From Escherichia coli (GTDB lineage Bacteria; Pseudomonadota; Gammaproteobacteria; Enterobacterales; Enterobacteriaceae), in assembly GCF_009931435.1 (NCBI RefSeq), contig NZ_CP043414.1: DNA of 64,000 bases, one strand, 5' to 3'. Shown in pieces: positions 42,501-45,500 of this stretch (its first letter is position 1; each line of letters starts with the position of its first letter). The position numbers were made by a program.

Positions 42501-45500
42501 TTGAAAGTGTCACTGGCGGCACTTACTGCGCCGTTTTCTTCCGCGTTACGTCAGGGATTACAGGCAAGTGAAACTGTGCTGTTGCGCTACAACTGGCCGG
42601 GAAATATTCGTGAACTGCGCAATATGATGGAACGACTGGCGCTATTTTTAAGTGTGGAACCGACGCCGGATTTAACGCCGCAATTTTTGCAGTTGCTACT
42701 GCCGGAACTGGCGCGCGAGTCGGCGGAAACTCCCGGTCCATGCTTACTGACGCCACAACAGGCACTGGAGAAATTTAATGGCGATAAAACAGCCGCGGCG
42801 AATTATTTAGGTATCAGCCGAACGACATTCTGGCGGCGGCTGAAAAACTGAAATGCCGAATCCAGCGCGAACGCCTTATCCGGCATAAATTTCAATAGAT
42901 GATCACCGATAAACTTACGCATCGGGCATGTTTACATGGGGTGCAGAATTATTTCTTCTTATAAATATTTGCCGTGCCGTGGATCTTATTGTCAGTTTGA
43001 CCAGAGGTCAGCACCAACACATCTGCCCCTTTTTCATCCGCTTTTTTGATCAGATCTTCTTTCGCATCTGCAGTCGACATTTCATTACTGGTTGAAATAT
43101 CACCTATTTTTTCATATTGCGATGCAACTTTTTCAAATTCTGCTTTGGTCATTAATTCTGCGGCATAAACGTTGGTAACGGCAAACGCTAACGCACCGAT
43201 TAACATTTTAGAGATTATTTTCATATTACGGCTCCAGAGTTGTTATCAAACTATCACCCACCCATATTATTGGGTTGATTAATAATTAGTTCAGTCAGGG
43301 CATAAACGCCAGTAACCGGAAATAAGACACTTTGTGATCTCTCTCGCATCCGATTACTTTTTGTAGAAATATGATGAAGTTACTTCACTTATTTATGGAT
43401 GAAATCACATGGATCCCTTGCACGCCGTTTACCTGACCGTAGGACTGTTCGTGATGACTTTTTTTAATCCGGGAGCCAATCTTTTTGTGGTGGTACAAAC
43501 CAGCCTGGCTTCCGGTCGACGCGCAGGAGTGCTGACCGGGTTGGGCGTGGCACTGGGCGATGCGTTTTATTCCGGGTTGGGTTTGTATGGTCTTGCGACA
43601 CTCATTACGCAGTGTGAGGAGATTTTTTCGCTTATTAGAATCGTCGGCGGCGCTTATCTCTTATGGTTTGCGTGGTGCAGCATGCGCCGCCAGTCAACAC
43701 CGCAAATAAGCACACTACAACAACCGATTAGCGCCCCCTGGTATGTCTTTTTTCGCCGTGGATTAATTACCGATCTCTCTAATCCACAGACCGTTTTATT
43801 TTTTATCAGTATTTTCTCAGTAACGTTAAATGCTGAAACACCAACTTGGGCACGTTTAATGGCCTGGGCGGGAATTGTGTTCGCATCAATTATCTGGCGA
43901 GTCTTTCTTAGTCAGGCGTTTTCTTTGCCCGCTGTGCGTCGTGCTTATGGGCGTATGCAACGCGTTGCCAGTCGGGTTATTGGTGCAATTATTGGTGTAT
44001 TCGCGCTACGCCTGATTTACGAAGGAGTAACGCAGCGGTGAGCAGATAATTTACTCTCTACGTAATCAACCTGATTTGCCGAATCCCGCTCATCGGCGAT
44101 GATACCCCCCGTAATGCGTGGTCCTTATTTCCGATAAGTTTACTTGAGTCTTTAGCTTCCCATTTCAGCCCACTCTCCCCTGTGTGGGCTTTTTTCATTT
44201 GTCTGCTTCAGTGAGTAGCTGGCAATGCTCCATCCACTCTGCAAGGATGATAATAAGAGGATCTGATTCAGAAGAGTTTTGAAAAATTGGACCGCCATCG
44301 AGGCCTCGAACCCCGTACCATACAACAATCCTGGTTGTCGTCTGCTCTTCCTGATGAGCTAATGGCGGTTTGTGATATGAGCCTTACAGCATATTGTCTG
44401 TCAGGCTTGAGTGCGATGCGTAAGATACAGAAAAGACCCCACACAAACATGATGGAATTATGATTTTTTTCATATGAATGTCAACCAACACATTCATAAA
44501 ACACTCGCACAAGTTCACTTTTTAAGCAACATGACGCCGATCACAACAAAATATCGGCGAAAAAGGAGGGTAAATGCCATTTGACGTAGAGATAAGCAGA
44601 TGAAATGATTACCCGCTTTGCGATTCACTCTCTGATGGAATAAGAAATTGGAGATGGAAAAGTTTCTAAACTAAAGAGTGTAGCGTATTTTAACGTGCTT
44701 ATTTACAGGATAATATTTGTCACCTAATTCCTGCACTCTATTAGATACCCATTGATTTAATCGTGCATCATCTCTGTATGTTTTTACGTTCAGAACGGAG
44801 AGCAATAACATCACTAGCGATTCAGGAAAAACAGGGTAAATATTTTTTAAGTGCAATAATAATTCATACGCAAGCGCCTGCTTAATAGGTGCGTCTGCGT
44901 CCGGAATGCGCGACATTTCGCGAAGCCATTTTTCTACATGCTCACATTCTTTCCCTTCACGGAAAAGTCTCAACAAAGGCATATGGTGCTCAAGAAGAAT
45001 GCATTTGCAATCTGTTCGTACTGAATCGATAAACTGCACTAATTTCTTAAGTCCGGTGAAGCGTCCGGCATGGATATTCTCTTTAATATCAAGAAACACG
45101 TCATCCTGATCATATACCCAAACGGTCCCTTTTTGATTTTCAAGTATCCGAAAAACAAACTTAATCGGGTAATCAGGGTAATCCACCCAGTCATAAACTC
45201 CAGGGAAATCATTAAACTGCACATTTATGGTAAGCGCATTGTCGGCTGCCCACTCGCAATCTCGTACGGCAGCCATGAGATAAATGAGTTTATCATCATC
45301 GACTAAATCATCACGACAATCATAAGGATAATCATAGTATTGTTTAATCAAAACCTTGAATATATCGACACAAGAAACCAGTGTACTTCTGATATCTTCA
45401 GGTAACTGATTGTTTTTAAACGTATTGTGTACGCTTTGTTTCGTATATAGCAACAAATTATTGTGCGGCGCTTTTAATGGTATCATTGCGATCTCTCTTA

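Follow-up and report, generated by a model that had tools for sequence, protein, structure and literature searches.

A candidate phage-derived, tRNA-like RNA gene at the yahM locus of Escherichia

The spacer between yahL and yahN in Escherichia coli raises the question of what a stretch of DNA that folds like a transfer RNA (tRNA), and that carries no canonical anticodon loop, is doing at the start of the small gene yahM. We addressed this question for an 81-nucleotide (nt) element located at 44288-44368 on the minus strand of a 64-kb window, that is, the whole stretch of E. coli contig NZ_CP043414.1 that was analysed. ARAGORN calls a single tRNA-type gene in the window, at 44288-44368 (-), labels it tRNA-Ser(gga) with the anticodon at position 38, and calls no transfer-messenger RNA (tmRNA) there. 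The element is thus visible to annotation tools; in the chromosomal RefSeq records examined it is unannotated. We favour the reading, at a probability of roughly 0.6, that it is a domesticated, non-decoding, phage-derived tRNA-like RNA gene under strong purifying selection.

Structure and invariance of the element

The minimum-free-energy fold of the 81 nt is a cloverleaf (-29 kcal/mol), in agreement with the ARAGORN call and with a cloverleaf proposed at the same coordinates by an earlier reading made from the DNA alone (hereafter, the sequence-only reading). With nt 1 at window position 44368 and nt 81 at 44288, the 5' half of the element reads CCGCCAU-UA-GCUC-AUCAGGAA-GAGC-AG-ACGACAA-CCAGGA-UUGUUGU and the 3' half, after UUGUUGU, AUGGUA-CGGGG-UUCGAGG-CCUCG-AUGGCGG-U-CCA. 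Every acceptor-stem, D-arm and T-arm feature named in the sequence-only reading is present, as are U8/A9, the discriminator and the CCA. The 5' acceptor strand CCGCCAU (44362-44368), identified both directly and from the fold, pairs with 44292-44298, and the 3' acceptor strand AUGGCGG, the discriminator U and the encoded CCA occupy 44288-44298, so that the 7-bp acceptor stem, discriminator and 3' CCA of a canonical tRNA are all in place. U8 and A9 directly follow the 5' acceptor strand, the D arm GCUC-AUCAGGAA-GAGC (44344-44359) contains A14, G18G19, A20 and A21, and the T arm CGGGG-UUCGAGG-CCUCG (44299-44315) is paired with one G.U pair. The bases that form tertiary contacts in canonical tRNAs (U8, A14, G18G19, A21, T54-Psi55-C56 and A58) are all there, and the fold puts them in loops. 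A20 is the main base by which arginyl-tRNA synthetase (ArgRS) identifies tRNA-Arg in E. coli.

The anticodon arm (44322-44341) is non-canonical, as judged from the fold and from comparison within the family described below. The sequence-only reading rightly took this region to be aberrant, without U33 or a purine at position 37 (R37), but in a better description of its geometry, ACGACAA and UUGUUGU pair into a 7-bp stem that closes a 6-nt loop, CCAGGA; an unpaired A26 and G precede the stem, and a 6-nt variable region accompanies it. U33 and R37 are absent in every 7-nt register of the loop; the register chosen by ARAGORN, CAGGAUU, puts A at position 33 and U at position 37, and the canonical arrangement of a 5-bp stem and a 7-nt loop does not form.

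In E. albertii, in Escherichia sp. E1V33, in one divergent species representative labelled 'E. coli' and in a metagenome-assembled genome, the exact 81-mer occupies the same site, where it converges on the 3' end of yahN. Three further Escherichia lineages with the exact 81-mer were reached through YahN protein homologues and synteny, with no nucleotide pattern used. We compared eight lineages, namely, the window lineage, K-12, E. albertii, Escherichia sp. E1V33 and four other Escherichia. Not one of the 81 columns of the element is variable in this alignment, compared with 31 of 82 (38%) in the leader that precedes it in the predicted transcript, 5 of 34 in the core promoter from the -35 hexamer to the transcription start site (TSS), and 182 of 633 (28.8%) in the yahN coding sequence, where variation reaches 63% at third codon positions and 7.1% at second positions. 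A 2-kb alignment of six lineages gave a longest invariant run of 85 columns, which corresponds to the element, with a runner-up of 26. The conserved block stops exactly at the element borders: past the CCA, neither E. albertii nor E1V33 can be aligned, and three lineages have lost the downstream segment, with ~40 nt left between the element and the yahN stop codon. The window lineage itself has ~95% identity to K-12 in neighbouring genes, and the block from the promoter to the element is 99% identical, whereas the flanking non-coding DNA is 80-82% identical.

Within E. coli, we surveyed 5426 complete genomes, 5168 of which carry the element. The copy is exact in 4821 records, has one substitution in 301 and other changes in ~47, and a copy covering at least 80% of the 81-mer is present in 5169 of 5170 E. 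coli records. The 301 substituted records represent the O157:H7 clade, in which the U at 44301 (nt 68, standard U63) is replaced by C, turning the T-stem G.U pair into G-C. In Citrobacter and Salmonella bongori, the yahN locus contains no element and no room for one, and thus offers no orthologue as a source of covariation; because these genera have yahN without the element, it was probably acquired on the Escherichia stem.

Could this invariance reflect a protein? In K-12 W3110, where the 81-mer is identical, the yahM coding sequence starts at an AUG inside the 3' acceptor strand, and the element makes up the end of the yahM 5' untranslated region (UTR) plus the first 11 nt of the coding sequence. 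The sequence-only reading placed the element at the site of yahM itself; it overlaps only those 11 nt, not the gene body. In the window, an open reading frame (ORF) scan finds a yahM remnant of 48 codons from the AUG (44152-44298 (-)), frameshifted relative to the 81-amino-acid (aa) YahM of K-12; PGAP marks yahM as a 'frameshifted' pseudogene in a near-identical genome, and in other Escherichia lineages the frame is 31, 17, 12 or 11 codons long, or deleted. The ORF scan and the lineage comparison likewise indicate that a 60-codon ORF running from the TSS through the element (44268-44450 (-)) is not a gene: its fourth codon is TAG in five of the eight lineages (L024, L026, L059, L060 and L063), and its start codon is AGG instead of ATG in L060 and L063. 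Stops, lost starts, frameshifts and deletions speak against coding constraint from YahM, the 60-codon ORF and the plus-strand ORFs alike, and the element has no synonymous-type changes whatsoever. Complete invariance of this kind is also unlike the evolution of coding sequences. By these comparisons, the element is not coding, and coding constraint on it is excluded. The pattern points to purifying selection on the element that is stronger than on its flanks and that coding does not explain. With no variation in the 81 positions against 38% in the leader and 29% in yahN, and with the overlapping ORFs broken, the element bears the mark of selection expected of a functional non-coding RNA.

Relatives in phage tRNA arrays

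The E. coli genome search also retrieved, on the phage-like 90-kb plasmid pHX138.261ft_1, an 81-nt gene 87% identical to the element, which PGAP names 'tRNA-OTHER' and which sits between tRNA-Ile(CAU) and tRNA-Arg(UCU). In the phage collection, 247 records match the element, and in all those examined in detail, the match lies within the ileZ-argN-argO tRNA cluster of lambdoid and Shiga toxin (Stx) phages, a cluster located upstream of stx in the phages having this gene. Phages phiP27 and mEp460 encode 81-nt variants with 82-84% identity to the element; the phiP27 copy, in the argN slot, is 84% identical (BLAST E=1e-18), and this homology, together with the 81/81 identity across Escherichia, places the element far beyond chance. 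The argN gene of phage 933W, a 77-nt tRNA-Arg(UCG), is 75% identical (BLAST E=3e-7). The 8-nt ileZ-argN spacer (ATCACAWA) found upstream of argN precedes the element as well and is all that remains of the position between ileZ and argO; the Arg anticodon UCG in a canonical loop is likewise missing, the loop being CCAGGA, and A20 is kept. By this homology, the element belongs to the phage tRNA-Arg lineage of argN, among those members that have lost a canonical anticodon loop.

The element shares with 933W argN the acceptor stem CCGCCAU/AUGGCGG, U8A9, the D stem, the T stem, the discriminator U and the CCA, but argN has a 5-bp anticodon stem with a 7-nt loop (CUUCGAA) and resides in a phage tRNA array, whereas the element has the 7-bp stem and 6-nt loop, stands alone in the chromosome, possesses its own promoter and does not match the Rfam tRNA model. 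The 'tRNA-OTHER' genes of phiP27-like phages and pHX138.261ft_1 (82-87% identity) have the same length of 81 nt, the same first 33 nt, T arm and acceptor stem, and the same lack of detection by the Rfam tRNA model. Unlike the element, they form a 5-bp stem with a 12-nt loop and receive no ARAGORN call. Half of the sampled copies have a T-stem mismatch (G-G in phiP27-type copies) and in one, that of mEp460, the T loop is destroyed, suggesting relaxed constraint, in contrast to the invariant chromosomal form.

Further relatives came from two viral-contig scans and one scan of species-representative genomes. Across more than 10 variants from viral contigs and genomes, the acceptor, D and T arms and the CCA are nearly identical, with the 5' acceptor strand unchanged in all family variants, and the anticodon arm is the only part that differs; the discriminator base among relatives is U, A or C. 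The arm consists of 5 bp with a 6-nt loop (CAUUAA) in at least 15 contigs, and takes the forms 7 bp/6 nt, 4 bp/3 nt and 5 bp/12 nt in others, with 5 bp and a 4-nt loop in a chromosomal variant of Klebsiella oxytoca. Most variants fold as cloverleaves, the phiP27 allele being the exception, and several are labelled 'tRNA-???' with two-base anticodons by ARAGORN. Three of these phage 'tRNA-???' variants, V1-V3 (75-78 nt, at least 20 IMG/VR contigs), lie directly after tRNA-Ile(CAU) and share with the element an identical 3' half, GGGGUUCGAGGCCUCGAUGGCGG, and 6-nt loops; V2 and V3 also have 7-bp stems, and V1 has the anticodon-stem core ACGAC/GUUGU. They differ from the element in their loop sequences, in the discriminator A and in always lying inside phage tRNA arrays, and their arms could persist just to preserve RNase P processing of the neighbouring tRNAs. 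More generally, it is possible that the retained acceptor and T arms of phage copies let RNase P separate neighbours only 1-9 nt apart. An identical copy that could act as a donor for gene conversion was found neither in the viral-contig scans nor on the one plasmid examined.

Little else of the phage array is discernible at the chromosomal locus. The promoter-to-element spacing of 88 nt resembles the 94 nt of the phage pT-ileZ-argN arrangement. Derivation of the leader from a decayed ileZ was rejected, as global alignment of five leaders with three ileZ genes gave z scores of -1.4 to +1.5 and local alignment found nothing. A decayed argO downstream was likewise discarded: the one collinear alignment, in the window lineage (p ~0.06-0.09), was not repeated in K-12, L026, E. 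albertii or E1V33.

Three observations concern the wider family. The argN homologue of the Stx phage TL-2011c (L007:1512-1588) has a 933W-type Arg body with anticodon UGG rather than UCG, a single-base anticodon switch that leads ARAGORN to call tRNA-Pro. IMG/VR contig 3300031370_000307 (L022:9224-9300) contains a chimera that matches the argN family exactly in its 5' acceptor strand and D arm but derives from a tRNA-Thr(UGU) in the anticodon arm, the T arm and the 3' acceptor strand; its acceptor strands cannot pair, ARAGORN makes no call on it, and it looks like the outcome of deletion or recombination between neighbouring array genes. The solitary 75-nt relative in K. oxytoca NBRC 105695 (L028:2753-2827; 5-bp stem, 4-nt loop, discriminator C) is not syntenic with yahN, its neighbours being a DsbD-like gene and a LysR-type regulator, and may be a separate acquisition, perhaps a second independent chromosomal capture.

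Transcription, proposed function and alternatives

Upstream of the element lies a sigma-70 promoter, TTGACA-16 nt-CATAAT (44457-44484 (-)), with 11 of 12 consensus matches. Its geometry predicts a TSS at the A at 44450 and an 82-nt leader (44369-44450 (-)), in which two hairpins are predicted with weak covariation support; when the entire primary transcript is given a consensus fold, the cloverleaf persists as a separate domain after these two hairpins. A Reg-Seq preprint (2026) that lists yahM as 'completely uncharacterized' confirmed the promoter and the TSS and identified IHF as a repressor, and the 'yahM 5' UTR' cloned in another study was amplified with a primer beginning with ATGTTTGTGTGGGG, which corresponds to the predicted TSS, and the Term-seq data of that study agree with this base (Adams et al. 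2021, PMC7815308). The element thus has its own promoter, by the consensus match, and is transcribed, by the published Reg-Seq and Term-seq data. According to the literature, the yahM signal rises in Shiga toxin-producing E. coli adhering to epithelial cells, and yahM is reported to belong to a 'core perturbome'.

Under the reading that we favour, an argN copy from a lambdoid or Stx phage would have been captured by the Escherichia ancestor once that lineage had separated from Salmonella and Citrobacter. The tRNA body would have been retained, with the acceptor stem, the D and T arms, the elbow formed by G18G19 and T-Psi-C, A20 and the CCA, and the anticodon arm would have turned into a 7-bp helix with a 6-nt loop unable to decode. 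Transcription proceeds from the element's own sigma-70 promoter, which IHF represses; the element follows the 82-nt leader within the 5' portion of the 'yahM' transcript, and the selected product would be the RNA rather than YahM. The domain is expected to fold as an L-shaped tRNA mimic and, by analogy with tRNA biogenesis, would probably be released by RNase P at C1 and trimmed to the CCA at its 3' end. It may act without decoding, through proteins that recognise the acceptor/T-arm half and the elbow of tRNAs, whether as a separate RNA of tRNA size or while embedded, as a tRNA-like domain, in a longer transcript. Of the three candidates considered in the sequence-only reading, a tRNA-like regulatory RNA is the best fit. 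We would extend this reading only tentatively, to the possibility that Escherichia, including K-12, carries a tRNA mimic that acts in trans and that the phage 'tRNA-OTHER' and 'tRNA-???' variants, with their anticodon loops of 3 to 12 nt, make up a wider family of non-decoding mimics and are not pseudogenes. Such a mimic might, for example, titrate or decoy a protein that recognises the top half of tRNAs, such as an enzyme of tRNA processing or modification, a toxin or colicin directed at tRNAs, or a tRNase active against phages.

The closest analogue of this possible mode of action is the chromosomal pseudo-tRNA tRNA-Other of Bacillus cereus, which does not work in translation, is found in longer RNAs under a regulated promoter and has been proposed to provide a regulatory RNA with a tRNA-like domain (Rogers et al. 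2012, PMC3399842). Unlike the element, it lies next to a genomic island, in a Gram-positive host, and has a function established through deletion phenotypes (PMC3399842). The two have no sequence relationship. The tRNA-like domains of tmRNA and of the Y RNA-like YrlA also combine an acceptor/T-arm top half with the lack of a decoding loop, but are not homologous to the element; the YrlA model reached 20 bits against a threshold of 69 on a phage locus and had no match on the window.

Several observations weigh against the reading that we favour. The fold energy is unexceptional (z = -1.9, with 10 of 200 shuffles folding equally well), and the Rfam tRNA model RF00005 (gathering score 29 bits) has no match at E<=10 in searches of 701 nt and 106 nt, whereas the phage tRNAs flanking a homologous copy, used as a control, score 62-68 bits. 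Other Rfam families gave only sub-threshold chance matches in the element region. The sequence-only reading would have been refuted by covariance-model scores below threshold combined with conservation of the stretch as yahM coding sequence; the score is indeed below threshold, but the conservation is not that of yahM coding, the ORFs being interrupted or deleted elsewhere. Given that the orthologues are invariant, they provide no compensatory changes, and structural support comes only from the O157:H7 change of G.U to G-C and from the retention of an anticodon-arm hairpin across the paralogous variants. The element is also dispensable: ~5% of E. coli genomes lack it, and in E. coli DETEC-S792 (L032:1501-2430) an IS1 is inserted in the T loop, with target duplication GGGGTTCG. 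This strain represents a natural knockout. The aberrant phage forms, some copies of which look degenerate, can be plain pseudogenes, although neither this degeneracy nor the RNase P spacing mentioned above applies to the isolated, invariant chromosomal copy.

The published transcript ends add to these difficulties. A Term-seq 3' end at MG1655 345390 (+), with ~4300 reads and flagged as Rho-dependent (PMC7815308, supplementary files 1 and 3), corresponds, by our own coordinate mapping, to nt 57 of the element (44312 (-)), which belongs to the 5' strand of its T stem, and the same table lists no end at the CCA of the element (PMC7815308). At least some transcripts would then end, or be trimmed, before or through the T arm and not as the complete cloverleaf, and an end inside the T stem is unexplained by a tRNA mimic. 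We found no Northern blot or tRNA-seq data with a discrete 81-nt RNA in the literature. Because genuine tRNAs appear in the Term-seq table only as +2/+3 precursors (PMC7815308), a mature and possibly charged CCA end may be invisible to this method.

The same end speaks for the main alternative, which we nonetheless consider unlikely, namely, that the element is solely a cis-acting attenuator or translation switch in a 5' UTR. In such a scheme, the fold would set premature termination, translation of a short ORF or antisense transcription into yahN, with the GAGG of the T loop and the AUG of the acceptor stem hiding a Shine-Dalgarno sequence and start codon, and a C-rich leader loading Rho. Besides the Rho-dependent end inside the element, a Rho termination region lies within yahM (PMC7815308), and yahM-yahN is listed in the literature as a convergent excludon. 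Moreover, GAGG is located 5 nt upstream of the AUG with both base-paired in the fold, and an ORF starting MAVQ(F/L)(F/L) follows the element in every lineage. That ORF, however, is conserved neither in sequence nor in length (81, 48, 31, 17, 12 or 11 codons), and the downstream segment is wholly deleted in three lineages, where the element sits ~40 nt from the yahN stop codon. An attenuator, furthermore, would not need all 81 bases fixed, including the tertiary bases of the D and T loops, next to a leader that varies at 38% of its positions.

The element could instead still be an aminoacylated tRNA with a special role, charged by ArgRS through A20 as a non-ribosomal donor or engaged in unusual decoding, in which a 6-bp stem and an 8-nt loop, A-C-CAGG-A-U, would be read as a quadruplet. 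The intact acceptor stem, A20, T arm and encoded CCA would suit such a role, the invariance of the anticodon arm suggests that it too is important, and the lack of a CCA end in Term-seq, where tRNAs appear only as +2/+3 forms, would be expected if charged ends cannot be ligated. We consider this improbable: no register of a 7-nt loop offers both U33 and R37, loop length among the relatives is 3, 4, 6 or 12 nt, which means that the family keeps no decoding function, and the discriminator varies among these relatives. The second major ArgRS determinant is C35, and this base has no defined counterpart in the element. At the opposite extreme, a functionless relic, the decaying pseudo-tRNA of an ancient prophage, would agree with the degenerate anticodon arm, the missing Rfam match, the clear decay of some phage copies of the same variant type and the E. 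coli genomes that manage without the element. The sequence-only reading had listed a decayed tRNA gene among its candidates, and with respect to origin this holds, since the element descends from a phage tRNA-Arg gene and has lost a canonical anticodon loop; as an account of what the element is today, invariant across the genus, it fails. Because a decaying pseudogene would vary, the element is probably not in decay: none of its 81 positions varies although yahN differs by up to 17%, an outcome with P ~0.3% even at the second-codon-position rate (0.929 to the power 81), the invariant block ends exactly at the element borders, and no identical donor for gene conversion turned up in the sources scanned. 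We therefore strongly disfavour decay, and its likelihood is very low. Lower still is that of a site acting at the DNA level, either an attachment site (attB) for tRNA-targeting integrases or the scar of an integrative element, as also considered in the sequence-only reading. Integrases often target the 3' halves of tRNA genes, and gene content at the locus is in flux, with yahL and the yahM segment present or absent by lineage. The homology, however, spans a whole internal gene of the phage late-region tRNA array, which lies downstream of Q or the methylase gene, and its upstream spacer rather than an att core or a 3' half. We saw no split or duplicated copy of the kind that integration leaves, the 81-mer being a full-length single copy flanked not by integrase genes but by yahL/yahK or a helicase gene. 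The near-universal presence of a copy in the E. coli records speaks against a scar, and the only insertion among the loci examined is the IS1. A host would have no reason to conserve an attB perfectly, and the element has its own conserved promoter.

Surroundings of the locus and implications

The window comes from an E. coli-like lineage, and its yahL-yahN spacer has a match of at least 99% in only 17 of the ~5200 matching records among the 5426 genomes. Between yahL and the yahM promoter, K-12 carries 40 nt that are missing from the window lineage (~44495-44510 (-); L002:2640-2680). The neighbouring yahL (44671-45486 (-)) encodes a 271-aa protein without a Pfam or NCBIfam domain and diverges faster than its neighbours, with ~86-94% identity to K-12 versus ~95% for yahK and yahN. 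In Escherichia sp. E1V33, no yahL lies between yahK and the element, and E. albertii lacks the gene. We rejected YahL as a functional partner of the element on the grounds that it has no such domain and is absent from E. albertii and other element-bearing lineages. In three lineages (L059:1-2367 and 3455-5633; L060; L063), yahN and the element are flanked on one side by an 875-878-aa protein without a Pfam match and on the other by a 1079-aa SNF2-family helicase, which replace yahO-prpR and yahL-yahK; the neighbourhood there has been rearranged around the conserved element.

On the plus strand, a GCCCAC...GUGGGC hairpin followed by a U-run (44147-44197), ~106 nt past the yahN stop codon, is probably the yahN terminator. 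It is kept in most Escherichia lineages, was missed by a simple terminator scan and has no U-run on the minus strand. Elsewhere in the window, the Rfam family naRNA4 (RF02564) has twelve above-threshold matches in four tandem clusters, at 10784-10963 (-), 12991-13269 (+), 35032-35296 (-) and 54703-55051 (+), which are probably arrays of repeats of the repetitive extragenic palindrome/bacterial interspersed mosaic element (REP/BIME) type.

E. coli K-12 is regarded as having a complete list of tRNA genes. In the literature searched, we found no paper that ties yahM (b0327) to a tRNA-like RNA, nor anything relevant on argN or ileZ. For a recruited pseudo-tRNA or tRNA mimic, an origin in a phage tRNA array, conservation of this depth and presence in K-12 are unusual. 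Our analysis indicates that the unit under selection at the yahM locus is an 81-nt, phage-derived, tRNA-shaped RNA and not the YahM protein, and that the sequence of this RNA has not changed since before the divergence of E. coli and E. albertii. If so, this y-ome entry would move from a protein gene to an RNA gene, and a tractable recruited pseudo-tRNA would be at hand in an organism for which tools for RNase P, ArgRS, IHF and Rho exist. By the same token, many of the 'tRNA-OTHER' and 'tRNA-???' calls in the tRNA arrays of enterobacterial phages would merit a second look.

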